Positions 25,020 to 56,615 of a stretch of DNA of 64,000 bases are shown piece after piece. The stretch is from NCBI GenBank assembly GCA_963789265.1, contig CAWBKB010000001.1:2272001-2336000 (forward strand), in the 5' to 3' direction. The translations under genes were made by a program, and so were the position numbers. This DNA comes from an uncultured delta proteobacterium (GTDB lineage Bacteria; Desulfobacterota; Desulfomonilia; Desulfomonilales; Desulfomonilaceae). How positions within the stretch are numbered: the stretch's first letter is position 1; the number at the start of each line of letters is the position of its first letter. The notes below the pieces were generated by a model that did no database searches, was not told the origin of the DNA, and worked only from the letters and a program-made list of their open reading frames with translations.

Positions 25020-25091
25020 ACAACTGAAATGGCAGCGAGAGCGCTACGGCCCAGGATCAACGCATGCTCGAAACTAAACGGGGGATATTCT

Positions 25092-25544
25092 GTGGAAAAT
25101 ATTGAAAGCGAAAACCTGGTTTCAGGGTTCAAAGGCGAGGAAGGGGAGTTGATCCCTCTTTTGCAACGTGTTCAAGAACGGCTGGGATACATTTCCGAAG
25201 AAGCTGTCGGACGCATATCCCGGTTCTTGAGGATATCTGAAAACCAGATTTTTGGGGTCGCCTCTTTCTATTCGCAATTTCGTTTTATCCCTCCGGGCAG
25301 AAACTCCGTCAGAGTCTGCTCCGGAACTGCATGCCATGTGCGAGGAGGTCAAATACTGGGCGAAACCGTAGAACGGCAACTCGGCATTTCTCCAGGACAA
25401 ACTACTCCCGACCGACGATTCGATTTCCAGCGGGTGGCGTGCCTGGGGTGTTGCGCTCTCGCGCCTGTGGTGCAGATCAACAAGGATGTTTTCAGTCGAA
25501 TGACCGTCACTCGTCTGAGAGAGATTGTGCAGCAATATGAATAG
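25092..25544 (+). CDS. NuoE/HydC-like [2Fe-2S] subunit
   Basis: VASFYSQF, CSGTACHVRG and CLGCCALAP motifs. Confidence 0.92.
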   Translation: MENIESENLVSGFKGEEGELIPLLQRVQERLGYISEEAVGRISRFLRISENQIFGVASFYSQFRFIPPGRNSVRVCSGTACHVRGGQILGETVERQLGISPGQTTPDRRFDFQRVACLGCCALAPVVQINKDVFSRMTVTRLREIVQQYE

Positions 25545-30793: not shown

Positions 30794-30801
30794 ACAAAGC
30801 C

Positions 30802-32370: not shown

Positions 32371-33576
32371 ATGACTACAGATGAGATCAGAGCGGTCTTG
32401 AACCTCCACAAGGAATGGTTGGAGGGCAGCGACCAGGGCAAACAGGCGGACCTAACAGGCGCGGATCTCAGGAGAGTTAATCTCAGAGGAGAGGATCTCC
32501 GGAAAGCAGTGTTCAGCCAGGCAGACCTTCGAGGTGCCGACATCTGCGACGCGAAGCTGGATATGGCGAATTTTAGTAAAGCAAGACTTAGAGGGGCCAG
32601 GCTTCTTCGATCGAGTTTGTGCGAGGCTGACTTAAGCGAAGCCGACCTGAGTGAAGCCAGACTTAGTATGGCGGACCTGAGCGGCGCAAACCTCAACAAA
32701 TCAGACCTCAGTGGTGCCAGACTAAGGGCTTGCACATTCAAAGGAGCTAATCTCAGGATGGTCGAAGCGACACGGGCCGATTTTTCCTCGTCCGATCTCA
32801 CGGGCGCCGATCTCAGCGATGCAGATGTTAGCGGCGCTAAGCTGGTGGACGTTGACCTAAGCGGCGCGAAACTCGTGGGGGCAAACCTCAGGCGAGCCCT
32901 TGCAAAGGGCGCAAAGCTCGCGGGCTGTGATATGACTCGGTCCAAGCTGAGCGGAGGTGACTTCAGCATGGCCGACTTGAGCGGGGCCAACCTGAGTGGT
33001 GCGAAATTGAGGGCTGCGGATCTGAGTCTGGCGGACCTGAGTAAAGCCGACATGTCAGGTGCGGATCTCGGCAACGCAAATCTGCAAAAGGCTAAATTGA
33101 GGAATGTGAATCTCACAAAAGCCAAACTTAAGGCCACCTTCCTGTATGGGGCCGACCTCGCGGGCGCAAATCTCAGCGATGCTAATCTAAATGGAGCGGA
33201 AGTGGCCGCAGCTAATCTCAGAGGAGCTAAGCTGACGCACGCTGATTGTTACAACGCTGACCTATCCAGGTCTGATTTCAGGGATGTGGATGCCAGGAAC
33301 GCCGATATTAGCAGGACGAATCTTCGCTCGGCAAATCTTGCCGGTGCGAACCTTGCGGGTGCGGACCTCAGTAGGGCTACTCTAACAGGTGCAAATTTGA
33401 TGGGGGCAGATCTAACACACGCGAATTTGGACATTTCAAATCTTAGGGCGGCGAACCTCAGCAACGCGAACCTCAGCGGTGCAACGTTTGTGGAGGCTGG
33501 AATGACGTTCGCCAACTTAGCGGGAGCGAACACCGAGGGCGCTAACTTCACAGGAGCCGAAGGGCTGAAGGAGTAG
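32371..33576 (+). CDS. Pentapeptide repeat protein
   Basis: About 70-75 consecutive A(D/N)Lxx repeats after an H-x-x-WL N-terminal cap. Confidence 0.93.
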   Translation: MTTDEIRAVLNLHKEWLEGSDQGKQADLTGADLRRVNLRGEDLRKAVFSQADLRGADICDAKLDMANFSKARLRGARLLRSSLCEADLSEADLSEARLSMADLSGANLNKSDLSGARLRACTFKGANLRMVEATRADFSSSDLTGADLSDADVSGAKLVDVDLSGAKLVGANLRRALAKGAKLAGCDMTRSKLSGGDFSMADLSGANLSGAKLRAADLSLADLSKADMSGADLGNANLQKAKLRNVNLTKAKLKATFLYGADLAGANLSDANLNGAEVAAANLRGAKLTHADCYNADLSRSDFRDVDARNADISRTNLRSANLAGANLAGADLSRATLTGANLMGADLTHANLDISNLRAANLSNANLSGATFVEAGMTFANLAGANTEGANFTGAEGLKE

Positions 33577-34784: not shown

Positions 34785-35249
34785 TCACCCAAACGATTCC
34801 CCTTTTTCAGCGGGGGCCTCCACAATCAGCATGGGGCGATGGGCCATCTTCAAAACGCTCCTGGCAACGCTACCCATTACAAGGTGCGTCACGCCGGTTC
34901 GACCATGGCTCCCGCACACGATCAGGTCGACATGTTTTTCTTGTGCCAAGGTAACTATCTGCCTTGTGGCCATGCCGGTTCGGCAGAAGGTCTTCACATC
35001 CTTCACCAGATGAGCACATTCTTTTGCCATCAAATTAAGGCGCTCGTGGGCAGCATCTTCAGTGGCGTCAAGGACGTCACGCAGCTTTCCTTCCCAATCG
35101 CCGGCCCAAGCGACATAGTTGGGAAAATCGATCACGTGCAGGATGAGAAGTTGTGCGTCAAAAGCTTTCGCATAGTCGACCGCCATCTCCCAAGCGGGAC
35201 GACTGTTCTCCGAAAAATCAGTACAAAAAAGAATCTTCTTGGGAACCAT
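34785..35249 (-). CDS. Universal stress protein (paralog of the adjacent gene)
   Basis: Same motifs; highly similar to 34010-34462. Confidence 0.93.
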   Translation of the reverse strand: MVPKKILFCTDFSENSRPAWEMAVDYAKAFDAQLLILHVIDFPNYVAWAGDWEGKLRDVLDATEDAAHERLNLMAKECAHLVKDVKTFCRTGMATRQIVTLAQEKHVDLIVCGSHGRTGVTHLVMGSVARSVLKMAHRPMLIVEAPAEKGESFG

Positions 35250-35504
35250 GCTGAATACCTCGTTCTAATTAAGTTGGTGAACCGCTGCGGCCACCCCTGT
35301 CGGACCACCCATTGATCGTCCGCGTTCTTAAGCCAATATTATTGGGCGAGAAAGGCCGAGGAGTCTGAGTGAGCCTCTCCTTTTCTCTGGGCCAAACCCT
35401 CAGTCTTTCCGGTAAACAGTAGCGAAAAGTCGATATAACGCCGCAGTTTCGCTCATAACGGTCTGCTCGCTTCAACCAAAATCCCTTAACTCCTGATCGC
35501 TACT

Positions 35505-35798
35505 TCACGGTTCAAAGTAGATTGGGGTTCCGAGTTGCCCCAGTCGAAAGAGGTCCAAAACGTGATGACCGTCGTAGTCGAGGATGCGCAAGTCATCCTC
35601 CTGATGAAGGTCGCCGGTAATAACGTTGTAATGGTGTCCGTACTTTTGTTTCGCCGTGTCCAGGGGTACTTCAAAAGCAACGAATTTCTTGATTCCTTTC
35701 GTCGCCAGCTTTTCAGCCAGGCGGGAATCCGTAAGCGATTCATACGAAGTCAAGATGAGAATGGGTCCTGAACCGGTAAAGAAAATGCCTGCTTTCAT
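35505..35798 (-). CDS. Conserved hypothetical cytosolic protein
   Basis: MKAGIFFTGSGPILILTSY...DLRILDYDGH with an AAAGGAG RBS. Confidence 0.75.
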   Translation of the reverse strand: MKAGIFFTGSGPILILTSYESLTDSRLAEKLATKGIKKFVAFEVPLDTAKQKYGHHYNVITGDLHQEDDLRILDYDGHHVLDLFRLGQLGTPIYFEP

Positions 35799-35901
35799 GA
35801 CACATGCTCCTTTCTTGGGTTTCACCCACCGGAATTCGGCTCTTATTGAGAGTTGCGCATAGAATGGCGCAGAACTTCGTACCTCGTGACAAATATTCAG
35901 A

Positions 35902-37408
35902 TCATTCTTCCGGAGGGTTCAGGGGCAAGTAAATCGTAAACGTGGTCCCCTTCCCCACTTCACTTGCAACATCGATTCTGCCACTATGCTCCCTTATAAA
36001 CCCGTAACAAATGCTCAGCCCGAGCCCCACTCCTTTCACCTCCTTCTTCGTGGTGAAGAAGGCATCAAATATTCTTTCCACGTTGTGCGGTGGTATCCCA
36101 ACACCGGTGTCTCCGATTGTAACAACAACGTTCGCAGGTTCAGGATCAAATCGGCTGCAGACCCGGAGTTCTCCTCCATTCGGCATTGCAGTATTTGCGT
36201 TAATAACCATGTTGATAAACACCTGTTTCAAATGGCTCCCCACTGCCATAATCGAGGGAAGTTCCCGGGCAAGATCCGTTATCACGCGTATGTTAAGGTT
36301 CTGGAACTGTTTCTCATAGAACAACAACGTCTCTTCGATAAGCTTGTTGATGTCGGTGAGACTCTTCTTCTCGTCGTCCGGCTTGAAGAAACTTCAGCAT
36401 TTTTATTAGAAGACCTGAGGTCCGCTTGCACTCGTTATAGGCAAGGTCAAGGTATTTCTTACGTTCATGAGTGTCGGGCAGCGAGTCCTTTGTCAGTTCC
36501 AGGCAGTTCATGATACCGAAAATTGGATTGTTGAGCTCGTGAGCCAGTTGGGATGCCATTTTGCCCATAGCAGAGAGCCTTTCGGACTGAATCAATTGCC
36601 GGCGCAGGCGCTTCGCTTCTGTGATGTCGCGCATGAGTCCCTGATAACTCACAACCTCTCCTTCATCGTTCTTTGTGGCATAACCACTCATGGAGACATC
36701 TCGGACGGTCCCATCCTTTCGAGCTATTTGCAGCTCGTAATCATTGACCTCGCCTTCTCCGGTGATTTTCCCGCGGAATACGATTACATCGTCCGCGTTC
36801 ACGCATAGATCGCGGTAATAATTCATTCCCAAGAACTCTTCCCGAGCATAGCCTATGATATTCAAGAGGGCCGGATTGCAATCGGTTACCGTTCCCTTGG
36901 CATCGGCAATGAAGACTCCATCCCGGATACTATTGAAGAGGTCTCTGTATTTGGTCTCAGACTCCGCCAGTTGGTCTCGCATCAGCTTTTCTTGAGTGCG
37001 GTCCACAACGAAGCCGCGATATCCGCCAATATTTCCGTCTTTGTCTCTCCACACGTAACTGGATAGGCTCACGTAAATTGGTCTTCCATCCTTGCGCCTG
37101 AAGGTGCCCTCATATCCCCTGACAAACCCGTGCTCCTCAATTATCGCTTGGAATTTGGGTCTGTCCTCGTCATTGCCCCACAACTGAGTGTTAAGGTCTA
37201 TTGCGAGCACTTCCTGTTTAGTCGAATAGCCGAGCATGTTGACCAAAGCGTCGTTACAATCTATGAACTGTCCTTCCCGGGTAGAAATGTAAAATCCGTC
37301 TCTTGCCTCCGCAAAGAATTCCTTTTTATTGCGCTCGATATCCAAAAGTCGTCGCACGTTCTCCTCATCGCCTATTTTGTTGATCGAAAGAACATTTCGA
37401 TCAGACAT
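35902..37408 (-). CDS. PAS-PAS sensor histidine kinase, apparent frameshift near 36390
   Basis: Two PAS/PAC domains and H-box LAHELNNP. HATPase motifs QVFINMVINA, DTGVGI and GLGLSI lie in the adjoining frame. Confidence 0.9.
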
Positions 37409-37506
37409 GGGTGCCTCCAGGCTCGTCCGCCACGGTTTGGAAAGGTTTCACGGGGTTGCCTCAAGTCAACGAGACCCCCCGGACGATGATCGGACAAATC
37501 CTTAAT

Positions 37507-38385
37507 TTACTGGGCCAGATCGAGAATGCGGGGAACGACCTCCTCCTTCCCTATGGCCATGATGTGGACTCCGTCAGCGATCTTCTCCTTCCGGATGGTT
37601 TTGATCATACGTGCCGCGATTTGTATCCCCGTTTCCAGGGCCTTGCCTTTCGGTGCGCCGGCCAATTCGTCGATAAGGGCCTCAGGTACGAATATACCGG
37701 GCACATTCTTGTTCATGAACTTGGCCATCGGTGCGCTGGTAAGGAGCACGATGCCTGCAAGGATCTTGACCTTAAATTTCCTGGCATAATCCATGAAGCT
37801 TCTAAAATTATTGAGATCGTAAATCGCCTGGGTTTGTATAAAATCCGCCCCTGCGTCGATCTTTTTTTCAAATTTTATTAACTGCGGTTCCAGTGGCCGG
37901 GCCTCGGGCGTAACGATGGCCCCTTTGACGAAACGAGGAACGCCATCCAAGGAGTTGCCTGCCAAATCCTTTCCGTCCGACAACGTATGGAGAGCATCCA
38001 GCAACTGCACAGAATCGAGATCGAAAACGCCTTTGGCCTCCTTGTGATCACCAACGACCACAGCGTCGCCGGTGAGGCACAGAACGTTGTATATGCCTCG
38101 GCTGTAGGCGAAGAAAAGATCGGCCTGCAGGGCCAAGCGGTTGCGATCGCGGCAGGTCATCTGGAGAATGGGCTCGCCTCCCATTTCCTTGACCAGAAGG
38201 GCTCCTCCTAAAGAGGGGTATCTCAGTACCGAGCTTTGATTGTCGGTAATGTTCATCGCATCCACACGGTCCTTGAGTAATGCGATGTGATGCTTCATAG
38301 GCTCGATGTTGACCCCCTTGGGAGGCCCTATCTCCGCAGTCACAACGAATTTTCCTGAATCGAGAGCTTCCTTGAACCGGCTCAT
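37507..38385 (-). CDS. metF: Methylenetetrahydrofolate reductase
   Basis: VTAEIGPPKG, NITDN, QMTCRDRN, LTGD, FIQTQ and GVHIM motifs. Confidence 0.92.
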   Translation of the reverse strand: MSRFKEALDSGKFVVTAEIGPPKGVNIEPMKHHIALLKDRVDAMNITDNQSSVLRYPSLGGALLVKEMGGEPILQMTCRDRNRLALQADLFFAYSRGIYNVLCLTGDAVVVGDHKEAKGVFDLDSVQLLDALHTLSDGKDLAGNSLDGVPRFVKGAIVTPEARPLEPQLIKFEKKIDAGADFIQTQAIYDLNNFRSFMDYARKFKVKILAGIVLLTSAPMAKFMNKNVPGIFVPEALIDELAGAPKGKALETGIQIAARMIKTIRKEKIADGVHIMAIGKEEVVPRILDLAQ

Positions 38386-38430
38386 GCGAGGCCCCCTTTC
38401 TTGCTCGCGACACACCGACTGAATGCCCAT

Positions 38431-39102
38431 CTACTGCCTATCAGCCTCCCCGGGCGAAAGTACCAGATCCATGATGCCGGGTCTCAGGACAGCGTTGTGA
38501 TTCTTGGCAGGATGGTACCTTTTCATGCGGTCAAGCCGTCCCTGACTCTGCAGCCTGTTGTAGATAACCGTCCAGGCGCACTGCCTTCCGTCGCCAACCT
38601 CACACATCCCCTCGTTTGGTCCTCCGCATGGGCCATTGAGGAGCCCTTTGTGGCAAAGCGTCACAGGGCAAATTCCCCCTGTGTCGGCCAGAACGCACTG
38701 CCCGCATTGCATGCAGACCTCGGAATAGCGCCCGGTCGGTCCTTCCTTTCCCATGAATAGTGTGTCGAGGGCCGGCACCACAGGTTTCTTGAGCTGCGAA
38801 GCAGCAGTCTGGACGCCAAATGCGCACGACATGACCAAAACAGCGTCTGCGGCACCAAGGGAATCCTTGAAAGCGTGTCTCATCTCTGCAGTCACTTCGT
38901 CGCATCCTGTAGGTGGGATAGCAGTCCCGGTAACGATCTTTCCCGCACCTGTCAGTTTCTCGGCCATCGCCGCTACTTCTTCAATTCCGCCGGTACGGCA
39001 TAAGGTGGCACATGTGCCGCAGCCGATGAGGAAGATGCTGGCGTCGTCCGTTAGGCTCTCCAGAATTTGCTCGAAAGTTTTTTGTCGGGTAATAGTCTTC
39101 AT
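38431..39102 (-). CDS. metV: MTHFR small Fe-S/Zn subunit (MetV, MTHFR C-terminal domain)
   Basis: GCGTCATLC, CAFGVQ and CMQCGQC...CP...C.KGLLNGPCGG...CE...CAW; adjacent to metF. Confidence 0.88.
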   Translation of the reverse strand: MKTITRQKTFEQILESLTDDASIFLIGCGTCATLCRTGGIEEVAAMAEKLTGAGKIVTGTAIPPTGCDEVTAEMRHAFKDSLGAADAVLVMSCAFGVQTAASQLKKPVVPALDTLFMGKEGPTGRYSEVCMQCGQCVLADTGGICPVTLCHKGLLNGPCGGPNEGMCEVGDGRQCAWTVIYNRLQSQGRLDRMKRYHPAKNHNAVLRPGIMDLVLSPGEADRQ

Positions 39103-39130
39103 GGCCGGCCCCTATGAAGAAACAGTGCAT

Positions 39131-42100
39131 TTACAAGTCAGTGTCGGAACGATTCTCTATCTCTCTCATACGTTCCAAATCACATCTGAGGCACCGGGAA
39201 GCTTCTGTTCGGGCCTGGTCTTCGCTGAATCCAGTCTCCAGCTCACAGAAGCTCAATACCCGTTCTGCCGGACGCAGAGAGGGCATTTCGACTCTGGGTC
39301 TGGGCTGATCCAGTTCTTCAGGCCGCGACGGTGGCTCAGGAATCAGGTGGTATTTTTCATCTGTGATGACAAGAGGCGCTTTGATACCTCCCAAATAGCG
39401 ATCAATGCTCAATGCCGCTCGTCGGCCTGTAGCTATGGCATAGATGACCATGGACGGACCGGTTACAAAGTCTCCCCCGGCGAATATCCATGGAATGTTG
39501 GTACACAGCGTATCAGGATCCACTCTCAGGGCACCCCATTTTACCCGTTCCAGTCGAGAATCTGGGGGGAGGAAACTCAAGTCAGGGGCTTGTCCCACTG
39601 CCGGGACCACCATGTCTGCCTCGAGGAAGAAGTCCGTCCCTTCAATTGGCAATGGTTGCCGGCGTCCGGACTCGTCAGGTTCTGCAAGCTTCATACGGAT
39701 GAATCTCACGCCTGTAACCCTGCCATTGGACCTTTCGATTCTGGTAGGCGAAACCAGAAACTGAAACTCTATACCCTCCTCCTGGGCCTGATGGAATTCG
39801 TACGGCGAAACAGGCATCTCTTCACTGGACCGCCGGTACATGACAGTTACGTGTCGAGCCCCTTTGCGGAGTGCACTGCGGGCTGCATCTACTGCTGTGT
39901 TTCCGCCTCCGATTATGAGGACGCGGTTCCCGACGTGAACATGTTCTCCTGCTTTGACATCACGCAAAAGGTGAAGCCCATAGGAGAGTCCTTCGATGCC
40001 TCCTTCTTCACCGGGAATGCGTAACTCCTGGCTTCGGTGTGCTCCCGCCGCGACAAAGACTGCGTCATACCCCTCCGCCCGGAGATCTTCCAGGGTATGG
40101 AATTGGTTAATGGCGCTATCGTAGAGGATTTCCACTCCCTTGGCCTGAATGTACTCAATTTCTCGGGCGAGTACGTCTTTGGGCAAGCGGAACTCCGGGA
40201 GAGCTACGTCTAGCATCCCTCCACCGTGGGAAAGCGCTTCAAACACAGTTGTTCTGTACCCCATATTCGCCAGGAAGTAGGCGCAACTGAGGCCGGCCGG
40301 TCCGGCTCCAACTATGGCCACTCGCTGTTTCCTGGTGACGGGAAAGGGCTCCGGGGGCGCTTGATTCGCATACGCCCAGTCGGCCGCAAAACGCTTCAGA
40401 TACCGAATGGACACCGGTTGGTCCACTTCTCCTCTGCGGCATTTCCCCTCGCAAGGATGATGGCAGATACGCCCACACACCGCGGGGAATGGATTTCGTT
40501 CTCGGATAACATCTATCGCCTTTTCGTAATCACCCTGGCTGAGAAACGCTACGTACGAGGGGACGTCGATTCCTGCGGGGCATGTGTGCTGGCACGGAGA
40601 AAGGACCAGAGCTTCGCATACTCCGGCCGGGCACCTTTTTCTCAAGATATGGGCTTCGAATTCGTCGCGAAAGTACGTGAGGGCAGATAACACAGGATTC
40701 GGACAAGTCTGTCCGAGTCCACACAGGCTGGTGCTTTTTACTAGACGTGCGATCCTTTCCAGCCTGTCCAAATCCTTCATAGTCGCCTCCCCTTTGGTGA
40801 TCCTTGTGAGAATCTGCAGCATTTGCTTCGTTCCAATGCGGCAAGGGGAGCACTGTCCGCAGGATTCCTCAGCAGTAAACGAGACGAAATAACGGGCTAC
40901 CTCCACCATGCAGGTGTTTTCATCCATAACCACCATGCCGCCGGATCCCATGATGGACCCCGCAGCCTGGAGCGAATCGTAATCAATGGGCAAATCAAGT
41001 AATTTGTGAGGTATGCATCCGCCTGAAGGGCCGCCCATCTGGACTGCCTTGAACTGCCTGTTCTTTGGAATTCCTCCCCCTATATCGAAAATCACATGTC
41101 GTATGGTGGCTCCCATCGGAACTTCGACCAGGCCCGTGTTGATGACCTTGCCGGTCAAGGAGAAGATCTTGGTTCCTTTTGATTTTTCAGTTCCTAGAGA
41201 AGCATAGACCTCTGTCCCCATCCGTATTGCCAAGGGGACATTAGCCAGGGTTTCGACATTGTTGATCACAGTGGGACAGCCAAAGAGACCCTTTTGCGCA
41301 GGGAATGGCGGACGCGGGCGAGGCATTCCTCTGCGGCCCTCGATCGAGGCAATCAGCGCCGTCTCTTCGCCACACACAAAAGCTCCGGCTCCTTGAAACA
41401 AGCGGATGTTAAAATCGAATCCGCTGCCGAGAATGTTCTCGCCCAAAAGCCCAAGTTGGCGGGCTTGCCCGAGTCCTGTTTCCAACCGCTCGACGGCCAA
41501 AGGATATTCTGCTCGGCAGTATATGTACCCTTCTCTCGCGCCGATGGCATAGGCCGCTATGATCATCCCTTCTATGACCAGATGAGGATTGCCTTCCAAG
41601 ATCGACCGGTCCATGAATGCGCCCGGATCTCCTTCGTCGGCATTGCAGATAATGAATTTTCGGTTGCCTTTCGAGGCCCGAGCGTAGCGCCATTTAGATC
41701 CAGTTGGAAAACCCGCACCGCCTCGGCCTCTTAATCCGGAGCGCTCTATCGAATCTATCACTCGAGTGGGCTCCCATGAGGCGAGTACCTCTTCGACGGC
41801 GCTGTAGCCATCATGAGAAATGGCATCTTCGATTGAAGTGGGATCGATGCGTCCGTTAAGAGAGAGAACCGTCCTCTGCTGCTGAGCATAGAAGGGCACC
41901 TCCGACTCATAGAGAAATTTCTTCCCGTTTTCGAGGTCTGAGTACAGGAGCCTTCCAAGAATGTTGTACCTGACCACCGTCTCTTCGACCACTTCCCGCA
42001 CATCTTCCGGCTTAAGGCCGGGATAAAAAATACGTCGGGGCCCGATGGTGACCAACGGTCCTCGCTCGCAAAAGCCTCGACATCCCACTCGCTTTACTTT

Positions 42101-42283
42101 CACCTTTCCGGCCAGCCCTTGCTTGTGCAGCTCTTCCTCTAGCTGTGTAATCACGTCCTCGGCTCCCCACGCCTGGCATCCTGTGCCGGAACACACAGCT
42201 ATCTCGGTCACATTAGGATCAAGGTTGCGCTGGAGCGCCAGACGAAACTTCGTCAGATCGGCAAGGGAATTCAGACGTTCCAT
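39131..42283 (-). CDS. NuoF/HydB-like FMN subunit fused to a GltD/NfnB-like FAD/NADPH domain
   Basis: 1050 aa. NuoF motifs (GRGGAGFP, NADEGDPG, CGQCSPC) followed by PCQHTCP, CGRICHHPCE, GAGPAG, GGGNTA, YRRS and EASRCLRC. Confidence 0.92.
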   Translation of the reverse strand: MERLNSLADLTKFRLALQRNLDPNVTEIAVCSGTGCQAWGAEDVITQLEEELHKQGLAGKVKVKRVGCRGFCERGPLVTIGPRRIFYPGLKPEDVREVVEETVVRYNILGRLLYSDLENGKKFLYESEVPFYAQQQRTVLSLNGRIDPTSIEDAISHDGYSAVEEVLASWEPTRVIDSIERSGLRGRGGAGFPTGSKWRYARASKGNRKFIICNADEGDPGAFMDRSILEGNPHLVIEGMIIAAYAIGAREGYIYCRAEYPLAVERLETGLGQARQLGLLGENILGSGFDFNIRLFQGAGAFVCGEETALIASIEGRRGMPRPRPPFPAQKGLFGCPTVINNVETLANVPLAIRMGTEVYASLGTEKSKGTKIFSLTGKVINTGLVEVPMGATIRHVIFDIGGGIPKNRQFKAVQMGGPSGGCIPHKLLDLPIDYDSLQAAGSIMGSGGMVVMDENTCMVEVARYFVSFTAEESCGQCSPCRIGTKQMLQILTRITKGEATMKDLDRLERIARLVKSTSLCGLGQTCPNPVLSALTYFRDEFEAHILRKRCPAGVCEALVLSPCQHTCPAGIDVPSYVAFLSQGDYEKAIDVIRERNPFPAVCGRICHHPCEGKCRRGEVDQPVSIRYLKRFAADWAYANQAPPEPFPVTRKQRVAIVGAGPAGLSCAYFLANMGYRTTVFEALSHGGGMLDVALPEFRLPKDVLAREIEYIQAKGVEILYDSAINQFHTLEDLRAEGYDAVFVAAGAHRSQELRIPGEEGGIEGLSYGLHLLRDVKAGEHVHVGNRVLIIGGGNTAVDAARSALRKGARHVTVMYRRSSEEMPVSPYEFHQAQEEGIEFQFLVSPTRIERSNGRVTGVRFIRMKLAEPDESGRRQPLPIEGTDFFLEADMVVPAVGQAPDLSFLPPDSRLERVKWGALRVDPDTLCTNIPWIFAGGDFVTGPSMVIYAIATGRRAALSIDRYLGGIKAPLVITDEKYHLIPEPPSRPEELDQPRPRVEMPSLRPAERVLSFCELETGFSEDQARTEASRCLRCDLERMREIENRSDTDL

Positions 42284-42295
42284 GACGTCACTCTG

Positions 42296-42760
42296 TCAGG
42301 GTAGGTTCCTTAGGACAGCTTCTACCCTCCCGGCATTGAGCTTTCCGTAATAGGCTTTGTTTATGACCATAACAGGGCTCAAAGCGCAGGCCCCAAGGCA
42401 TGCCACAGTCTCGAAGGTGAACCGCATGTCTTCCGAGGTTGCGCCGTCTTCTAGCCCGGTAAACTTTTGGACCGTTGGGTCCACGGTTCTCCCGGCTCGA
42501 ACGTGGCAAGCCGTTCCACGACAGACCCTAATGACGTTTTTCCCCCGGGGCGTGATGGTAAACTGGCTGTAAAAGCTAATTACTCCGGTGATCTCCGATG
42601 GGAATATCTTTATGAACTTCGCTATAGGTTCCACCGTATCAGACGGAATGTATCCGAACTTTTCCTGAACCGCCTGAAGAACGGGGATAAGATTTTCGCG
42701 CACGGGTTGGAACTGTTTTAGAATTTCGTCTAAGAGCCCGATGTCCAATTCCTGTTCCAT
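42296..42760 (-). CDS. NuoE/HydC-like [2Fe-2S] subunit
   Basis: SFYSQF, CRGTACHV and CLGACALSP motifs. ATG 42760 has a GGAGG RBS. Confidence 0.92.
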   Translation of the reverse strand: MEQELDIGLLDEILKQFQPVRENLIPVLQAVQEKFGYIPSDTVEPIAKFIKIFPSEITGVISFYSQFTITPRGKNVIRVCRGTACHVRAGRTVDPTVQKFTGLEDGATSEDMRFTFETVACLGACALSPVMVINKAYYGKLNAGRVEAVLRNLP

Positions 42761-45415
42761 TACCCTTCCTCCCCTAATGAAACGGAAACATAGATACGGT
42801 CCCAACCAGCAGGACAATATTCTTCCGGCCACGGTAGCAGTCTCTGGAAGATGTACCGTGGGCCGGCCGCAGGAATTACCAATCCGGACGCGGGAACTTC
42901 GACGTCCTCAATTACCCGAGCCTTAACTTCACCGACCTCTGAGCCCAACCGGATCCAACTCCCTTTTTTTGCTCCGACTCTTTGCATGTCGTTCGGATTC
43001 ATTCTGACCGATGCGATCTCCCCCATGCGGGCAAGCCTGGGAGACCTGCCGGAGACCACTCCGTCCCCTGGATGAGCGGTTTGCGCTTCCGGATATACTT
43101 TCCAAGGACGGCCGGGCGGGGGTTGCGGAGGAGCGGCGAATGAGTCAGGCGGTGGATATGCAACCCACTTTCGGCCGCTGCAGGTTTTGGCGTATCCGCC
43201 ATCATTCTCGGGATGGCCAAGCAAGACCCCTCCCACTTTTCCAACTGCCTCCCAGGTCAAGCTGCTCCAGGCAAGACACGTCCTGGTGATTTCCTCAAAA
43301 ACATCGCTTGCAGAAACGAAGTCCAGGGGGTATCCAAGCATGCCTGCGAGATCCAAAATGAAGCGAGCGGTTGGTCGGGCGGTCCCCGGAGGGTCAGAGA
43401 GCTTCGAGACACGTTGAACGCGACCTTCGGTGCTTACGTAGGTTCCGTCGGTCTCGGTAATTGCTGCGGTGGGGAATACTATGTGGGCGGTTTCTTCGCC
43501 TATCGCCCGAAACATGCCGGTGCGAACGACCAAATCAGGCAATGAAAGAGCCTTTTGCGTCCTCTGCGAATCAGGAAAAACAGCGAGAGGATCCACTCCC
43601 AGAAACAAAAGGGCCTTGAGTTCGCCCCTTTCAGCGGCTCGGATCATGCCCATAGCGTCCAGTCCTCGTTTCAAGGTCATGTCTGGCCGGCTCCACCTGT
43701 TTCGGAAAAACTCCAGGGCCTCGCGGTCCATTGACACGAGGGACCCCGGGAGCCTATCCGGTGCGCATCCCAGTTCCCAGGCCCCAACTTCGTTGCACCC
43801 TTCAAACAGAAAAAGAACATTGTCCGGCTGTCCACATAGGAGGGCAAGATCGACTAAAAACCGGCTAAGAATATATCCCTGAGTGGCTCTGGCCACTCTC
43901 GAACCAAACAAGAAAATGGATTTCCGCCCTTTACCAATGAGCCTCGCCACCTGTTTGATCTCACTTCTCACCGGGACTCCTCTCAATTGTCCCCTGAGGT
44001 CAGAGATGAATTCTTCGGCATTGAAGACATTATTGAGAACAAAGGTTTCGTCGTGAAGATTGGCGGAGACGATTTCTGTCATCAATTGAGCCAGGCCGAG
44101 AGGCAATTCGTCCATGCGTTCGCGCCAACGGATTCTCGCAAAAGAACTGAGCGAGGTCGTTACAGGATCAAGCTGGACGAGAGCCGCCCCACGTTGACTT
44201 ACGGCTCGGCGAACATTACGAGCCACTACTGGATGGGTATAATCAGGCCTGGCCCCCATCAGTATTATGGTCTCGGCCTCCTGAATCCGCTTCAGTAGGG
44301 GCTCTAGAGGACGTATTCGGGACATGGATGCCGCAAGACCGTCCACCACCGGTCCGGATGTAAACCGGGCGATAGAATCAATATGCGGCGTTTGCAGGAC
44401 AGCGCGGGCCAGTTTGACAACGAGATAAATCTCCTCATTCGAGCACTGTGCACTCACTATGATTCCCACGCTGTCTGGGCCAAAGTCCTCGATCACTTGA
44501 CCCAACCGGCCCGCTATTTCTCCGAGGGCCTCATTCCACGAGACTTCTCGGAAACTCCTCGTTCCCTCCCGGACGAGCGGCTCTGCCAGTCTCTCCGCGG
44601 CTGACAGGGCATCCTGGCCGTAATGTCCCCTGACACAAAGAGAAAGACTGTTTACAGGAGAGCCCGACACTGCCCTGGCCCCGACCACAACACGATCAAT
44701 TAGCTCGTACTCGAGATGGCATCCGGTCCCGCAGGTACGAACATATTCCCGGTGTCCGGACTTTTCCTGAGCTATACGAAGGCCGTCCTTTCTCCGCTAA
44801 TGCGTCGGTAGGACAGATTGCAACACATGACCCGCAGTAATTGCACTCAGATTCGTCCAGCGACGAGCGGTGTGCCGTGCCGGGATGGCCCGAGTAACCG
44901 CGGTCGATGTAGTCTAAAGCACCCACTGCCTCGAAATCCCTGCACACCCGGATGCATCTGCCGCACAGGACACATTTCGTCAAATCCCGGACTACAAAAG
45001 GATTGAGTTCGGCCATATATCGCCAGCGCCTGACCGGTTCCATATCGGGGTCGCATATCCCATGCTCCTTTGCCAGGGATCGGAGAGCACATTCATTACC
45101 TTTGTTGCAGATGACGCAAGCAGAAGGATGATCCGACAAAATGAGCTCCAGCACGCCTCGCCTAGCATTTACGGCGTTGGTGGAATGCGTGAGGATCTCC
45201 ATCCCGTCGGCAATGGGAGTGACGCAGGAGGCAAACAACCTCCCGGTTTTTGCCTCTTCAACCAGACACACCCTACATGCTCCGGAGTTTTGCAGGAGAG
45301 GATGGTGGCACAAAGTCGGTATTTCCACCCCAACTTGCTTTGCCAGATCCAAAACAGGCGTGTCGGGCGTTCCTGCAACTACTCGACCGTTAAGCGATAT
45401 CGTGACGGTCTCCAC
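42760..45415 (-). CDS. NuoG/formate dehydrogenase alpha-like Fe-S subunit lacking the Cys/Sec ligand; apparent frameshift near 44735
   Basis: IPTLC...GACRVC, HPSACVIC, CVLCGRC, CNYCGSC, CSY/CGTGC...LCVRG, PHIDSIARFT and ETDGTYVSTEGRVQ. Confidence 0.85.
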
Positions 45416-45555
45416 AATGGCCCTCCGTATTTCGGAAACTTGGGAAGAGGTTTCCGCTGCAAGCCTTCGAGGTCCGTCCACCCGGATGGACTAAACGTCC
45501 TTGCCTGAAGACCACAGGCAAAGCCAGTCTTGTTAGTTGTTACCTTTCGGCAGCA

Positions 45556-46437
45556 TCACTTAAACTTTGATCGCTTGATCTCTTGAAGGACCGTGCCGAT
45601 TTTGTCTTCCCATCCAAAGGGGAGGATATGAACCCCTGCGCAAATTCCCCTGAGTTGCTCTACTGTTTCGAGCATAATTTTGGCCGATTCGTCGAATTTT
45701 ACGGGTGCTCTTTCAATCCGTTCTATTATGCGGTCAGGTATGTTCAATCGCCCTACTCTTTTCAACATACGTGCAGCCATGCCGGAATGGAGCATAAGCA
45801 ATTCGGCTATGATCGGAACCCCCATGGGGTCCACCCGTTTTACGAATCCCGCAAATTGATCGACATCGAAGACTGGCGTGGTGAGAAAATATCTTGTGCC
45901 CTGCTCCACCAGTCTCTCCATTTCGCGGAGTTCCAGGTCCGGACAGTTTCCGCCAAAACAAGCTTCCACCCCCGACCCTATGAAGAAGCCCTTTTCACCA
46001 TCGAGCTCTTTGCCATGCACATCGATCCCTTTCTTCAGAGAATCGATCACGGAAAAGAACTTGCCCAGATCCACGTGAAAGAACATCATCTCCTGCAGCG
46101 AGTCACCCGTTATGCGATAATCGTCTGTAAAGACCAGAAGGTTCTCCACCCCCGCCGACGAGGCTTGGATCAGTGATTCCTGGATTTCCAGGCGATTGCG
46201 ATCGCGAGTTCCCACCTGGAATACAGGATCGAATTTCTTATCCCGGAGTAGTCGGCAAAGGGACAAGGAATCGCTAATGGCCGCGTCCGTAGCGAAAGGA
46301 TGGAAACGAACACCATCGACCCGCCCCCAAAGGTTGTAGATTTCCTCCAAGTAATCGTGAGGGGTCTTCCCGTGAGGAAGGTGGATCTCACACGTAACGA
46401 TAAACTTGTTTTCCTCCAAAACTTGCTTCAAGCTCAT
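45556..46437 (-). CDS. Divergent MetF-like (MTHFR family) protein
   Basis: KFIVTCEI, FQVGTRDRN and GVHILP align with the neighbouring metF. Confidence 0.8.
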   Translation of the reverse strand: MSLKQVLEENKFIVTCEIHLPHGKTPHDYLEEIYNLWGRVDGVRFHPFATDAAISDSLSLCRLLRDKKFDPVFQVGTRDRNRLEIQESLIQASSAGVENLLVFTDDYRITGDSLQEMMFFHVDLGKFFSVIDSLKKGIDVHGKELDGEKGFFIGSGVEACFGGNCPDLELREMERLVEQGTRYFLTTPVFDVDQFAGFVKRVDPMGVPIIAELLMLHSGMAARMLKRVGRLNIPDRIIERIERAPVKFDESAKIMLETVEQLRGICAGVHILPFGWEDKIGTVLQEIKRSKFK

Positions 46438-46467
46438 GGCGTCACTCCCCTCTGAAGTGGCAAATGA

Positions 46468-47040
46468 TCACTGGGCGAGGCCCAGGAGACTCGCCACTTC
46501 CTTCTTCAGCTTCTCAAGGGGCAAGGGCTTTGAAAAGCAAACATCAGCGCCGTACTTTTTCATTTTCTCGTGATTCTCCTCGTCCAGGTAGGCCGACAGC
46601 ACAATGATTTTCATGTGGCACGTGGCAGGGTCCTGCTTCACCCTTTTGCACACCTCGTATCCGTCAATGTCAGGCATCATTATGTCAAGGATGAGAAGAT
46701 CAGGCTTGAAATGGCTCATCTGAATTCCGGCTTCGAAACCGTCAGCCGCTGATATGATCTCGTAATCGTTGGGCTCCTCCTCCATAGAACGGACTATTGT
46801 CTCCACTATCAATCTGTCGTCGTCAATTACTAGGATCTTCTTGCGGTCCGTTTGGTCAGCTTCCGCGGAGACAGGCATACCCATACGCCGAAGGAAGACA
46901 TCCAAATCCTCTTTTCTGACCCGTCGATGCCCACCAACCGTTCGAAACGCTTTGATGTGGCCTTCGTCTATCCAATTGCAAATCGTCTTGGGCGAAACGC
47001 TGCAATATTTACTCGCCTGATAAACGGTTAGTACGTCCAT
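46468..47040 (-). CDS. Response regulator with N-terminal excisionase/MerR-like HTH and C-terminal receiver domain
   Basis: VLTVYQAS...TVGGHRR followed by ILVIDDD, LDIMMP and SKP. Confidence 0.9.
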   Translation of the reverse strand: MDVLTVYQASKYCSVSPKTICNWIDEGHIKAFRTVGGHRRVRKEDLDVFLRRMGMPVSAEADQTDRKKILVIDDDRLIVETIVRSMEEEPNDYEIISAADGFEAGIQMSHFKPDLLILDIMMPDIDGYEVCKRVKQDPATCHMKIIVLSAYLDEENHEKMKKYGADVCFSKPLPLEKLKKEVASLLGLAQ

Positions 47041-47107
47041 GGCACGACCTCCCCCGGAGCAAGCGGATCGATTCCGCTTATTTCCACTATTACCGGTTTT
47101 ACTAATT

Positions 47108-47124
47108 TGCATTTCTCATGCCAA
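47108..47124 (-). promoter_or_regulatory. Sigma54 (-24/-12) promoter
   Basis: Minus strand TTGGCAT-GAGAA-ATGCA, about 70 bp upstream of the response regulator. Confidence 0.7.
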
Positions 47125-47314
47125 ATATTCGACAGGAAGGAATTCTCGATGAGCAGGTTGCAGGCAAGCAGAATTAGGGCGGGAAAATCAATACGAATCA
47201 GCAAGTGGAGCGGATGTCAGTATCTTTGACAGATTGTAAAAATCTCAGCGAAATGGTTTTCGGCGCGGAAAGAGTAAAGCCGCGTTCTATGCGCTCATGT
47301 TTTTGTTTTTCTCT

Positions 47315-47839
47315 TCAATTGCCGGGTGCAACTCTGGAGATGGCGTTCACGATATTGCCGACAAACTTCAGTTCCTTTTGTCCCTGTAATTTGTTGGCAG
47401 AATCGAATTTCAGAGCACCTACCGGACAAACGCGCACACAAGCAGGTTCCAAGCCGGCTTCCACCCTTTCTTTGCACAGACCGCATTTCTGCATTTTTTC
47501 GTCTCGGTCGTATCTGGGGACCCCAAAGGGACATGCCAGGGCGCAGCTATGGCACCCGATGCACAGTTCCTTGTTGACCGTGACGGCACAGGCTCTCTCA
47601 TCCCTGGTGATGGCCCCGGTTGGACAGCCCATCACACAAGGACTGTCCTGACAGTGCATGCAGGAGGCTGAAACGTACTGAATGGTCGCACCAGGGAACT
47701 CTCCTCCTTCAATCCGGTAAATCCTTCTGAGAGCGGGCTGACCTTTTTCAGGAAAGATGTCGTTCTGATCCATACAGGCCACGGTGCAGGCACCACATCC
47801 GGAGCAAAGATCTACGTCCAGATAAATCGCTTTATTCAT
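47315..47839 (-). CDS. 4Fe-4S dicluster protein (DmsB-like)
   Basis: CSGCGACTVAC, CMHC..SPCV.GCP, CIGCHSCALACP and KC.LC...PACV..CP motifs. Confidence 0.92.
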   Translation of the reverse strand: MNKAIYLDVDLCSGCGACTVACMDQNDIFPEKGQPALRRIYRIEGGEFPGATIQYVSASCMHCQDSPCVMGCPTGAITRDERACAVTVNKELCIGCHSCALACPFGVPRYDRDEKMQKCGLCKERVEAGLEPACVRVCPVGALKFDSANKLQGQKELKFVGNIVNAISRVAPGN

Positions 47840-47841
47840 CG

Positions 47842-50004
47842 TTAAATCTCCTTTCCTCGAACTTTCTCGACCTTGCACAGAGCAGACTTGAAGCCCGGGA
47901 AGCCGGAAAGTGGGTCCAGGTAGTCGCCTTCCAAAAGAAGATTGACGTCGGCCTGTTCATGCCCGTGGTAGATATGGATCACTTCCGGCTGAACCATTTG
48001 GGTAAGATTGGCCTTGACGACGATGGAATCTTTGGGCGTGGAGATGCGTATAGACTCGTCCTGCTTGATGCCCAGTCGAGCGGCGTCGGCGGGGTTTATG
48101 TCCGCCGAGGGATGGTTCGGCCTCAGACTGTTCGTCCAGGTGAGGCGGAAGGTTCTGGTGTGGACAAACATGGGCAGTCTGGAACCCGTGTTGAGAATGA
48201 TTGGAAATTCGAGCGCCAACTCCGGTGTCGACTCCCTGCTGTATTTTGGGGGCGTGTAGACCGGCAGCGATTCAAAACCGAGCTTTCCTTCATATTTTTC
48301 AAGAATTCCGGATTTGAATTCCATCTTCCCGGAGGGAGTCTTGAAGCCCAGCTTGATGTATTTCTTCTCCGGCGGTTTTGTCGGGTTTGGCACAAACATG
48401 CCGGCTGCATGCTTTTTCAATTCAGCGACGGATATGCCGCTTGGCTCGAGTATCCAGTCCACGCTGGGCTCATAACCGGCCTTAAAGAGCGGATCGTCCA
48501 AGCCGAGTCTCGCTGCCAGTTCATAGATAATCTCCACGTCGGAATGCGAATCATAAAGTGGCGCGACTGCGGGCTGGGTAAAGACAATGTAACCCATAGG
48601 GTAACAGCGGAGCTCACTTCGTTCCACCGAAGTGCAGGCCGGCAGCACAAAGTCTGCGTATTTGCATGTGTCGGTATTGTAAATATCCACGTTTACGAAT
48701 AGATCGAGTTTCTCCAGGCTTTCCAACACACCTTTGGAGTCCGGCCACATCCTGAAGTTCATCCCGAAGCCGATCACCGCCTTGAGCGGGTAAGGCTCAC
48801 CCGAGCGGATCTGGTCGGGAATATGCATAGCCTGGGCTTCTTCATCGACCATTTCCATCCAGACCGGGAACCGATCTGCCCCGACTCTCGGGGGCATTTC
48901 GCTCCACGGTCTGCTTTGCGTGAATTCGCGCTCTCGTGTCGGGATCAAGCCGGGAACATGGATGAAACTTGGAGGAATAACGAAGTTGCCCCCCACGACG
49001 TCATAATTTCCGGTAAGCCCGGCCAGCGAAAAAACGGCCCGATAGTTCTGCACACCGTTGGTATGGTGCACTACGGGAGAAGCGCTGGGCATTATTGCGG
49101 CCGGTTTTGAGGAAGCATACATCCGGGCTGCCTTGACAATCATGTCGGCAGGCACTCCGGTGAGTTCTTCGCCTCTGACCGGGGTAAACTTTTGAACATA
49201 CTCTTTATAATCGTTAAAACCATGAGAATAGTCGGCTACAAAATCCCGGTCATAAAGGCTCTCGTTTATGATCACGTTCGCCATTGCCAATGCCAACGCT
49301 CCATCCGTCCCGGGCCTGACCGGCAAGTGAATATCTGCAAGAGCCGTAGTTGGAGTCTGCCTCGGGTCCACGACTATGAGCATCATGCCTCTGTTCTTGC
49401 CTTTCAGGATGGCTCTGGCGTGGCCCGGATTTGTGTGAAACGGGTTGGCGCTCCAGACTAGAAGACAGTTCGTATTGCTTATATCCGGTCCGCCCGGCAG
49501 GCCGAAGGTGAGCTTCTGAGCCATGGCCATTGCCTGGAAGCAGGTGCTGGATTCCGACATATAGTTAGGCGAGCCGAAAGAGTGGGCTAAACGCTTGAGA
49601 TACGGTCTGAAGTATTTTGTATAGCCCGCGAAAAAGATTACAGACTCGGGGCCGCTTTCCCTCTTGATTTCATTGAACTTGAGAGCAATGGTGTCCAAGG
49701 CTTCGTCCCAGGATATGGGCTCGAATTTTCCGGACCCTCTGGCACCGATCCTTCTGAGCGGCGTCTTCAGACGATCTTCGCTGTACACATATTGCCTTTG
49801 CGCAGCCCCTTTGGGACATAGTGTACCAACGCTGTAAGGGTTTTCTTTACTCCCTTCCACCTTGATAATTTTCCCGTCCTTCACGTACAGGTCCAGGCCG
49901 CACTGGGTCAGAGGATCGCAGATGCCGCAGATGGATTTCCTCACCTCTATACCCGTTTCAGGGCCGGGGATTTTTCCTCGCAACAGACTATGAAGATCCG
50001 TCAT
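47842..50004 (-). CDS. Cytoplasmic molybdopterin (Mo/W-bis-PGD) oxidoreductase catalytic subunit
   Basis: CGICD...C...LCPKG, ESSTC (candidate Cys ligand), VDPR, PGTDGA and NPADA. No twin-arginine signal. Confidence 0.9.
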   Translation of the reverse strand: MTDLHSLLRGKIPGPETGIEVRKSICGICDPLTQCGLDLYVKDGKIIKVEGSKENPYSVGTLCPKGAAQRQYVYSEDRLKTPLRRIGARGSGKFEPISWDEALDTIALKFNEIKRESGPESVIFFAGYTKYFRPYLKRLAHSFGSPNYMSESSTCFQAMAMAQKLTFGLPGGPDISNTNCLLVWSANPFHTNPGHARAILKGKNRGMMLIVVDPRQTPTTALADIHLPVRPGTDGALALAMANVIINESLYDRDFVADYSHGFNDYKEYVQKFTPVRGEELTGVPADMIVKAARMYASSKPAAIMPSASPVVHHTNGVQNYRAVFSLAGLTGNYDVVGGNFVIPPSFIHVPGLIPTREREFTQSRPWSEMPPRVGADRFPVWMEMVDEEAQAMHIPDQIRSGEPYPLKAVIGFGMNFRMWPDSKGVLESLEKLDLFVNVDIYNTDTCKYADFVLPACTSVERSELRCYPMGYIVFTQPAVAPLYDSHSDVEIIYELAARLGLDDPLFKAGYEPSVDWILEPSGISVAELKKHAAGMFVPNPTKPPEKKYIKLGFKTPSGKMEFKSGILEKYEGKLGFESLPVYTPPKYSRESTPELALEFPIILNTGSRLPMFVHTRTFRLTWTNSLRPNHPSADINPADAARLGIKQDESIRISTPKDSIVVKANLTQMVQPEVIHIYHGHEQADVNLLLEGDYLDPLSGFPGFKSALCKVEKVRGKEI

Positions 50005-55394: not shown

Positions 55395-56615
<1,221 letters not shown>

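Follow-up and report, generated by a model that had tools for sequence, protein, structure and literature searches.

A conserved operon joining MetVF to a NuoF::GltD fusion in Desulfomonilaceae, a candidate variant of the methylene-tetrahydrofolate reductases

Four types of methylene-tetrahydrofolate (methylene-THF) reductase, I to IV, were distinguished by Oppinger et al. (2021), whose list has no Nuo type (PMC8760232). The MetVF enzymes purified so far are described there as lacking an NAD(P)H site of their own (PMC8760232), and RnfC2 of A. woodii provides a precedent for a NuoF-like module working with MetVF (PMC8515935, PMC8760232). For the Moorella-type enzyme the second acceptor is still described as unknown in the accounts consulted. 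A further arrangement was noted by Yi et al. (2021), who reported metFV downstream of NuoEFG homologues in Dethiosulfatarculus sandiegensis, described it as widespread in Desulfobacterales and Chloroflexi, and proposed a hypothetical bifurcating 'X type', named in their supplement a 'hypothetical Pentamer ... MetFV-NuoEFG complex' (PMC8515935). An operon in which genes for NuoEFG homologues lie immediately upstream of metFV is found on the minus strand, at 35505-47124, of a 64,000-nucleotide stretch of DNA from an uncultured delta proteobacterium of the family Desulfomonilaceae (assembly GCA_963789265.1, contig CAWBKB010000001.1, positions 2,272,001 to 2,336,000), referred to here as the window.

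The other relevant relatives are the bifurcating Bfu enzymes. According to Schut et al. (2022), the N-terminal [2Fe-2S] domain of BfuB is absent in non-bifurcating NuoF homologues, whilst its C-terminal 2x[4Fe-4S] ferredoxin-like domain (clusters B4/B5) is said to be invariant. The minimal 'flavobicluster', as presented in cryo-EM papers of 2025, consists of the FMN/NAD(H) site and the B1 [4Fe-4S] cluster of BfuB together with the C1 [2Fe-2S] cluster of BfuC. Schut et al. (2022) makes no mention of tetrahydrofolate, MTHFR, methylene, GltD or fused, and the Stn structure paper mentions neither MetVF nor MTHFR.

The operon in the window is genuine, unbroken and conserved to great depth, and encodes a variant of the MetVF reductases that has yet to be characterised. 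Its new and specific feature is a NuoF::GltD fusion which brings in NADP(H) in place of the ferredoxin domain. The trimer encoded beside metVF probably forms a functional unit with MetVF, judging from gene order, fusions and motifs. The wider reading, in which the whole run would be one functional unit made of a MetVF reductase, a rearranged trimer of the Nfn-Bfu/Stn type and dedicated two-component control, and would correspond to the X type of Yi et al., is one in which belief and doubt are evenly balanced. The genes, in the order in which they would be transcribed, are as follows.

46468-47112, minus strand: response regulator (Pfam Response_reg, 82.7 bits) with an N-terminal MerR-like DNA-binding domain (HTH_17, 49.7 bits)
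45556-46437, minus strand: MetF-like protein of 293 amino acids, a divergent MetF paralogue and accessory gene (Pfam MTHFR, 58.7 bits)
42760-45481, minus strand: NuoG/BfuA-like subunit, one gene of about 900 amino acids (Pfam, PDB alignment, orthologues)
44696-45481, minus strand: first open reading frame of the NuoG-like gene, with Fer2_4, NADH-G_4Fe-4S_3 and 2x[4Fe-4S]
42760-44688, minus strand: second open reading frame of the NuoG-like gene, with Molybdopterin and Molydop_binding
42296-42760, minus strand: NuoE/BfuC-like [2Fe-2S] subunit (Pfam 2Fe-2S_thioredx, 152.1 bits)
39131-42283, minus strand: NuoF::GltD fusion of 1050 amino acids, with a partial 2Fe-2S_thioredx match, Complex1_51K, SLBB and NADH_4Fe-4S, then Fer4_20 and Pyr_redox_2
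38431-39102, minus strand: MetV, iron-sulphur (FeS)/Zn subunit of MetVF, 223 amino acids (Pfam DUF5981, PF12225, 111.6 bits)
37507-38430, minus strand: MetF, catalytic subunit of methylene-THF reductase, 307 amino acids (Pfam MTHFR, PF02219, 131.3 bits against a cut-off of 24)
35902-37408, minus strand: PAS sensor histidine kinase, one gene, with PAS_9/PAS/HisKA (open reading frame 36314-37408) and HATPase_c (open reading frame 35902-36327)
35505-35825, minus strand: open reading frame of 106 amino acids, no Pfam family

This run had been outlined in an original prediction made from the sequence, and every gene named there is present according to the open reading frames and Pfam. The small protein with which that prediction closed the run exists as the 106-amino-acid frame, but having neither a family nor a conserved match (tblastn found none at or above 70-80 bits in related loci) it is not counted in the unit. 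The core genes are closely packed, with 12 nt between NuoE and the fusion, 28 nt between the fusion and MetV and 0 nt between MetV and MetF, whilst NuoG and NuoE overlap. NuoE likely starts at an ATG at 42760, overlapping the NuoG stop, where the list of open reading frames has a GTG at 42832 (42296-42832); its translation contains an internal MEQELD start and the Cys pairs CRGTAC and CLGAC. MetF scores above its Pfam cut-off and MetV, Cys-rich and bearing the NGPCGG motif, lies directly upstream of it. That motif and 12 Cys are invariant among 25 MetV orthologues, and the orthologues of MetF are 70-96% identical and invariably follow MetV. No protein of the cluster rises above a curated NCBIfam cut-off: the fusion reaches 496.6 with nuoF_fam (cut-off 558.65) and 479.4 with PRK12771 (cut-off 516), and MetV has no match at all. 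A scan of 35000-48000 for promoters and terminators returned predicted sites that were rarer than in shuffled sequence.

In the window, the NuoG-like gene and the kinase gene each appear as two open reading frames in different frames, the shift in NuoG falling inside a CxxCxxxC motif, between ..GICSY and CGTGCH... Both splits are errors of this assembly and both genes are whole, because the two extra bases, one at 44734 and one at 36389, are absent from the Logan contigs of four out of four public runs (two studies), which were compared over 35900-45500. One of these runs (X1) lacks the same two bases and has no other differing letter in its listed pieces; it is possibly the source sample and so is not independent, and the remaining three runs agree. 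Orthologous NuoG proteins are encoded by a single open reading frame of 880-889 amino acids, and the PAS/HisKA and HATPase_c parts of the kinase share one frame in the related locus L012. A selenocysteine TGA and a true pseudogene were both considered as explanations of the NuoG split, and both are ruled out by the different frames and by the absence of the extra base in all four runs. Elsewhere in the genome, the FTHFS gene lies in four pieces (G000:C3:24630-26367; reads not checked), and an acyl-CoA dehydrogenase reading frame at 16507-17289 of the window has the N and middle domains only. Further frameshifts of this kind are compatible with an indel-prone assembly. As it has many single-base indel errors, apparent pseudogenes of this genome are not to be trusted.

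The fusion protein begins with an N-terminal [2Fe-2S] domain, followed by the FMN/NAD(H) site and one [4Fe-4S] cluster, and ends in a GltD/NfnB-type cassette (2x[4Fe-4S], FAD and an NADP(H) motif) of which a C-terminal RCLRCD tail is part. In the NuoF half, Complex1_51K scores 159.7 bits and NADH_4Fe-4S 121.7 bits. The partial 2Fe-2S_thioredx match covers residues 26-101, in which C31, C36, C68 and C72 do not vary, either in a set of 13 sequences or in one of 25, so that the N-terminal [2Fe-2S] domain of BfuB is present. The FMN/NAD(H) motifs GRGGAGF, NADEGDPGAF and GAGAFVCGEETA and the B1 cysteines C475, C478, C481 and C521 are likewise invariant in 25 orthologues. At the level of sequence, the fusion thus holds the FMN/NAD(H) site and the B1 [4Fe-4S] cluster of the flavobicluster, and NuoE, with its two Cys pairs, the C1 [2Fe-2S] cluster. 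The best PDB matches of the NuoF half in phmmer are all B subunits of bifurcating enzymes: 7t2r_B (755 bits), 7q4v_B, 8a6t_B, 9n5u_B (NfnB), 9bov_B and 8oh5_B. Aligned with a canonical BfuB encoded elsewhere in the window, the fusion shows 50% identity as far as CPAxVC and diverges beyond it; the canonical protein has Fer4 at 568-623, whereas no Fer4 dicluster match is found in the fusion. The point of divergence indicates that the GltD cassette has replaced the B subunit's 2x[4Fe-4S] ferredoxin domain.

The cassette itself, residues 562-1036, is collinear with residues 102-567 of NfnA (9bov_A) and StnC (8oh5_C), RCLRCD tail included (phmmer: 9bov_A 409, 9n5u_A 400 and 8oh5_C 365 bits). Weaker matches are to the large subunit of NfnSL and to proteins like dihydropyrimidine dehydrogenase (4ylf_B, 330 bits; 5jca_L, 316 bits). 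In 25 orthologues the eight Cys of the FeS domain, the FAD motif GAGPAG, GGGNTAxD and R699 are invariant, and YRR is nearly so among 13 fusions. GGGNTAxDxAR and YRRsxEEMP, present in NfnA and StnC, which use NADPH, are retained in the cassette, and R699 is the equivalent of StnC Arg239, a residue discussed by Kremp et al. in their account of Stn (PMC7483475). The fusion therefore carries the GltD-type FAD/NADPH cassette with two [4Fe-4S] clusters (8 Cys conserved) that is typical of Nfn-Bfu/Stn, although on NuoF and not in the NuoG-like A subunit, which has no Pyr_redox or Fer4_20 match in Pfam. On this comparison, the trimer is an Nfn-Bfu/Stn relative whose NADP(H) cassette has left the A subunit for the C-terminal end of the B subunit, where the ferredoxin domain was lost in exchange.

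The NuoG-like subunit carries an N-terminal [2Fe-2S] cluster, a His-type [4Fe-4S] cluster, 2x[4Fe-4S] and a CxxCxxxC...C Fe4S4 domain, followed by a molybdopterin domain like that of formate dehydrogenase (FDH). The latter lacks the Cys/Sec ligand and the following catalytic His of a Mo/W-bisPGD formate dehydrogenase: ARFTSGPV in the window aligns with TRLCHASS of the Methylobacterium enzyme (7vw6_A), and three orthologues are likewise without these residues. The original prediction had spoken of a Bfu-like trimer with a 'ligand-less' FDH/NuoG-like subunit, and of a B subunit whose C-terminal ferredoxin domain had given way to a GltD/NfnB-type flavoprotein domain; the PDB matches, Pfam and the alignments with 7vw6_A and the canonical BfuB bear this out in each respect.

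These features could also be read as those of a ferredoxin-coupled bifurcating reductase as proposed by Yi et al., in which NADH would reduce methylene-THF and ferredoxin together, and the GltD part would be only an extra NADPH entry or a ferredoxin-docking FeS domain. The NuoF half does resemble B subunits of bifurcating enzymes most and has retained the N-terminal [2Fe-2S] cysteines absent in non-bifurcating homologues, and the ferredoxin route of NfnSL is described as the two [4Fe-4S] clusters in its GltD-like subunit (PMC10482914). However, the operon includes no separate ferredoxin domain and no ferredoxin gene, and on this reading there would be no need for the intact set of FAD and NADPH motifs, which is nevertheless invariant in 25 orthologues. 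This reading is considered quite unlikely.

The association with MetVF is conserved over a wide range of hosts. The architecture of the fusion is widespread, each of the 120 clusters listed being at least 59% identical over nearly the full length and the closest named protein (P0001, from a Desulfomonilaceae metagenome-assembled genome, MAG) being 99% identical. In 80 genome-contig loci, all six fusions that are at least 55% identical (L012-L017) have MetV directly downstream and NuoG-NuoE upstream, with MetF after MetV wherever the contig continues; their hosts are Desulfomonilaceae, Desulfobacterales, a delta-proteobacterial MAG and a Dehalococcoidales MAG. The more distant fusions (44-53% identity) are all without MetV or MetF (10/10) and mostly show the order NuoE-fusion-short NuoG; two further loci (L054, L066) contain NuoF plus a separate, distant GltD-like stretch. 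Among the loci with a canonical NuoF only 1/62, L018 from Phycisphaerae, has MetF/MetV nearby. It was considered as a GltD-free version of the MetVF-NuoEFG unit and rejected, being a cluster of Fhs, a MetF-MetV-pterin-binding fusion, a real FDH-Bfu and Mo-cofactor genes. This one-carbon cluster (L018:1359-13822, from a MAG) encodes Fhs, the fusion of 815 amino acids, NuoE, a canonical NuoF, a NuoG of the real FDH type (Molybdopterin, 286.7 bits), MobA and MoeA.

A survey of the phylum led to the same picture. In 400 sampled genomes, the 29 best non-self matches (56-76% identity) were examined, some 16 further full-length fusion matches (54-58% identity) being listed outside these 29. MetV follows the fusion in 27 of the 29 loci, the other two ending at a contig edge (27/27 uncut), and NuoE lies upstream in all 29. 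When 20 of the survey genomes, a set overlapping with the 29, were extended to 10-17 kb, the core NuoG(long)-NuoE-fusion-MetV-MetF was found in every region, two being cut inside NuoG. The orthologous loci span more than 10 Desulfobacterota families and one Dehalococcoidales MAG. In a tree of 47 rows (IQ-TREE quick, LG+G4), one clade with an SH-aLRT of 94 holds 33 MetVF-linked fusions and 2 cut ones, with the 10 unlinked fusions outside. As the core is strictly syntenic in all uncut orthologous loci (6/6, 27/27 and 20/20, in partly overlapping sets), a lack of conservation of metVF beside these genes is no objection to the original prediction.

It might nevertheless be that two enzymes share one operon: a variant Stn/Nfn-Bfu transhydrogenase acting on NADH, NADPH and ferredoxin, and a free, ferredoxin-dependent type II MetVF, co-expressed for one-carbon redox balance. 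In S. ovata, the stn genes are described as lying just downstream of metVF, and Stn was purified as the StnABC trimer, without MetVF (PMC7483475). The nearest matches of the two fusion halves are Nfn-Bfu/Stn subunits, the ten distant fusions indicate that a NuoF::GltD protein can work without MetVF, and type II MetVF is reported to use reduced ferredoxin in vitro (PMC8515935, PMC8760232). Against this, the ferredoxin domain of the B subunit, which is described as part of the ferredoxin site in Tsi NfnABC, is absent here, the synteny is far stricter and phylogenetically deeper than in a loose one-carbon cluster, the operon has no other Wood-Ljungdahl gene, and proteins fusing GltD to MetV exist. 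Two separate enzymes are thus judged unlikely.

Longer MetV relatives include MetV-MetF, MetV-RnfC (of the RnfC2 type), MetV-histidine kinase and GltD-MetV proteins, the RnfC of the second group being a NuoF relative. The GltD-MetV group comprises 15 clusters (P0204-P0218, 591-605 amino acids), mostly labelled as Clostridia MAGs, in which a GltD-type module (Fer4_20 and Pyr_redox_2) is fused to the C-terminal domain of MetV; in P0204, Fer4_20 spans 22-101, Pyr_redox_2 115-411 and DUF5981 489-564. These proteins can be taken as Rosetta-stone evidence suggestive of electron transfer from a GltD-type module to a MetV domain, and may represent another, undescribed input type for MetF. Separately, three histidine kinases of 523-527 amino acids (P0121-P0123) have an N-terminal half formed by a MetV domain, about 50% identical to MetV of the window, followed by HisKA and HATPase_c; they may be sensors of FeS or folate redox state.

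A GltD-MetV protein resembles a minimal NADPH-linked input, and so lends something to the idea of a plain, non-coupling NAD(P)H-dependent reductase in which either nucleotide would feed MetVF, as in the RnfC2-MetVF enzyme of A. woodii. RnfC2 is reported to be just such a NuoF-like NADH module, acting on MetVF without bifurcation (PMC8515935, PMC8760232). Three extra subunits and about 10 FeS clusters would however be a heavy apparatus for a downhill reaction, and the N-terminal [2Fe-2S] domain of Bfu type and NuoE have been retained. This explanation is regarded as very improbable.

The preferred reading remains that of a functional unit of the trimer with MetVF, towards which several lines of sequence evidence point: the synteny, its specificity (10/10 distant fusions unlinked, 1/62 canonical loci linked), the single clade, and the GltD-MetV and MetV-RnfC fusions. 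It is also favoured by the NADPH motifs kept in the cassette, by the lack of an NAD(P)H site in MetVF itself, and by the Wood-Ljungdahl pathway's ACS and FTHFS genes in the same 6.06-Mb genome. It is attractive to consider that the five proteins would assemble into one complex with two pyridine-nucleotide sites, NAD(H) at the FMN of NuoF and NADP(H) at the FAD of GltD, and with methylene/methyl-THF bound at MetF. Electrons would pass from the GltD FAD through 2x[4Fe-4S] to the 2x[4Fe-4S] of MetV and on to the MetF flavin, whilst the clusters of NuoF, NuoE and NuoG would tie this chain to NAD(H). The proposed chain from GltD through MetV (2x[4Fe-4S]) to MetF (a flavin TIM barrel) resembles that of dihydropyrimidine dehydrogenase. 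The dead FDH domain of NuoG or the FeS domain of GltD would be the docking site for MetV.

The complex might then be a three-terminal redox-coupling enzyme, a Bfu core in which the ferredoxin arm has been swapped for a built-in NADP(H) flavoprotein and MetVF has become the third arm, a view put forward as doubtful but worth stating. NADP+ would take the place held by ferredoxin in other Bfu enzymes. The potentials quoted in the accounts consulted (methylene-THF, E0' about -200 mV; NAD about -280 mV and NADP about -380 mV under physiological conditions) allow the reaction 2 NADH + CH2-THF + NADP+ <-> 2 NAD+ + CH3-THF + NADPH, and this exact stoichiometry is offered tentatively. In an organism using the Wood-Ljungdahl pathway for oxidation it would run in reverse, with NADPH helping to push the uphill oxidation of methyl-THF with NAD+.

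A number of points weigh against this picture. Both the assembly and the reaction have been deduced from genes. The S. ovata case, in which Stn came free of MetVF despite adjoining metVF, is a warning that adjacency alone can mislead. For methylene-THF to act as the high-potential partner, a centre of different tuning is required. The clade's support, 94, is not starred, and the outgroup, the canonical NuoF of L018, fell beside the linked clade, which leaves the root of the tree unsure. A metagenome scan with P0204 returned generic GltD relatives (about 30-38% identity) and no locus with MetV/MetF (0/80), so that GltD-MetV beside metF was not confirmed. Finally, the genome possesses other MetVF sets, and the copy linked to NuoF::GltD is therefore not the sole route. 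These sets are MvhD-MetV-MetF near dnaA, MetV-MetF beside glutamate-synthase-like genes, and MetV with HdrA/MvhD/HdrCB-like genes. In the last (G000:C5:~299400-304500; L011:5408-10498), MetV stands without MetF and is followed by an HdrA-like flavoprotein, a polyferredoxin-MvhD fusion and HdrC-like and HdrB-like genes.

The remaining genes of the operon are the MetF-like paralogue and the two-component pair. The paralogue is about 30% identical to MetF orthologues in tblastn, and the Atlas cluster nearest to it, with 304 members, is one of MTHFR. It keeps 22 of the 81 near-invariant MetF columns, among them E17, D106, Q74, R78, R82 and H270, and is without the PPKG, TDNQ and QTQ motifs. In the 20 extended loci a histidine kinase or response regulator homologue is always within the region (20/20); the MetF-like gene is directly beside an orthologue of the response regulator (56-80% identity) in 10, as also in L015 and L016, and is invariably accompanied by the regulator. 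A dedicated two-component system may control the unit of MetVF and trimer. One genome (G202) has the response regulator and MetF-like pair downstream, after the kinase; some 2.4 kb upstream of NuoG in its X-type operon it also carries a second, distant MetV-MetF pair (34% and 44% identity; L131:2097-3640).

Other genes of the window belong to different systems. A canonical Bfu-like cluster on the plus strand (25029-32205) encodes NuoE (171 amino acids), NuoF (638 amino acids, with the C-terminal 2x[4Fe-4S]) and a NuoG/FDH-like protein in three frames (27425-29877), followed by NfnA-like (280 amino acids) and NfnB/GltD-like (467 amino acids) genes; the two frameshifts are probably assembly errors, the reads not having been checked. 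Directly upstream of the operon, on the minus strand (47842-51263), lie a molybdopterin oxidoreductase of 720 amino acids with an Fe4S4 domain, for which Fdh-alpha/PhsA is the best NCBIfam match, below cut-off, and a Pyr_redox_2 protein of 420 amino acids, most like PadH (241.8 bits, below cut-off). This pair is not conserved beside the operon in the other genomes examined. The window further contains beta-oxidation genes and a LIV transporter, a pentapeptide-repeat protein of 401 amino acids (32371-33576, plus strand; Pentapeptide, 303.9 bits) and an IS110-family transposase (55395-56336, minus strand).

It has long been asked how the reduction of methylene-THF is coupled to energy conservation, and how sulphate reducers and syntrophs oxidise methyl-THF against NAD+. 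For a large Desulfobacterota group and some of the Chloroflexota, the operon offers a concrete answer that can be tested, a MetVF that would have both NADH and NADPH sites, and it may reveal the way in which certain anaerobes keep the difficult redox step of methyl-folate in balance. If the three-terminal reading were true, NADP+ would turn out to be the 'second acceptor' long sought for a bifurcating methylene-THF reductase, and NADPH would drive the uphill oxidation of methyl-THF in acetyl-CoA oxidisers. A Bfu core without a ferredoxin domain also bears on how Bfu enzymes bifurcate. As D. sandiegensis is a cultured carrier named in print, purification is feasible.

Comparison with the described systems brings out both parallels and differences. 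The X type of Yi et al. shares with the operon the NuoEFG homologues upstream of metV-metF, and its range in Desulfobacterales and Chloroflexi matches the Desulfobacterota families and the Dehalococcoidales MAG found here. The X type is, however, a gene-order remark accompanied by speculation; the NuoF of D. sandiegensis is not confirmed as a GltD fusion, and the relevant passages of Yi et al. mention neither a GltD fusion nor NADP(H), a dead FDH domain, the MetF-like paralogue or the two-component system (PMC8515935). The original prediction had proposed a candidate new complex. In the full-text literature, subscription-only papers lying outside this scope, no biochemical characterisation of an enzyme made of MetVF and NuoF::GltD was found, although the idea of a MetFV-NuoEFG complex has been in print since that paper.

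The type II (C. ljungdahlii), type III RnfC2-MetVF (A. woodii) and type IV MetFV-HdrABC-MvhD (M. thermoacetica) enzymes resemble the operon in having metV upstream of metF and in the Cys and NGPCGG motif of MetV. As with types III and IV, the genes beside metVF supply a further flavoprotein module that has a nucleotide site, but in the window this partner, a trimer derived from Bfu and having two nucleotide sites, differs from both RnfC2 and Hdr/MvhD. In its GltD-type NADPH-FAD-2x[4Fe-4S] module the cassette agrees with dihydropyrimidine dehydrogenase, the NfnSL large subunit and glutamate synthase GltD, whereas, in contrast to dihydropyrimidine dehydrogenase, the acceptor MetVF is on separate polypeptides and the module is fused to NuoF. 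Stn and Nfn-Bfu (S. ovata, 8oh5; C. saccharolyticus, 9bov; T. sibiricus, 9n5u) resemble the trimer in their NuoE-like subunit, their NuoF-like subunit with its N-terminal [2Fe-2S] domain and their NuoG-like subunit with a dead molybdopterin domain, and they possess the same collinear GltD module with its C-terminal RCLxC tail. In these enzymes, by contrast, the cassette lies inside the A subunit, the B subunit is of the HydB type and keeps its ferredoxin domain, and the gene order is E-F-G. In the window type the cassette occupies the place of that ferredoxin domain at the C-terminus of B, the order is G-E-F, and MetVF is genetically attached.

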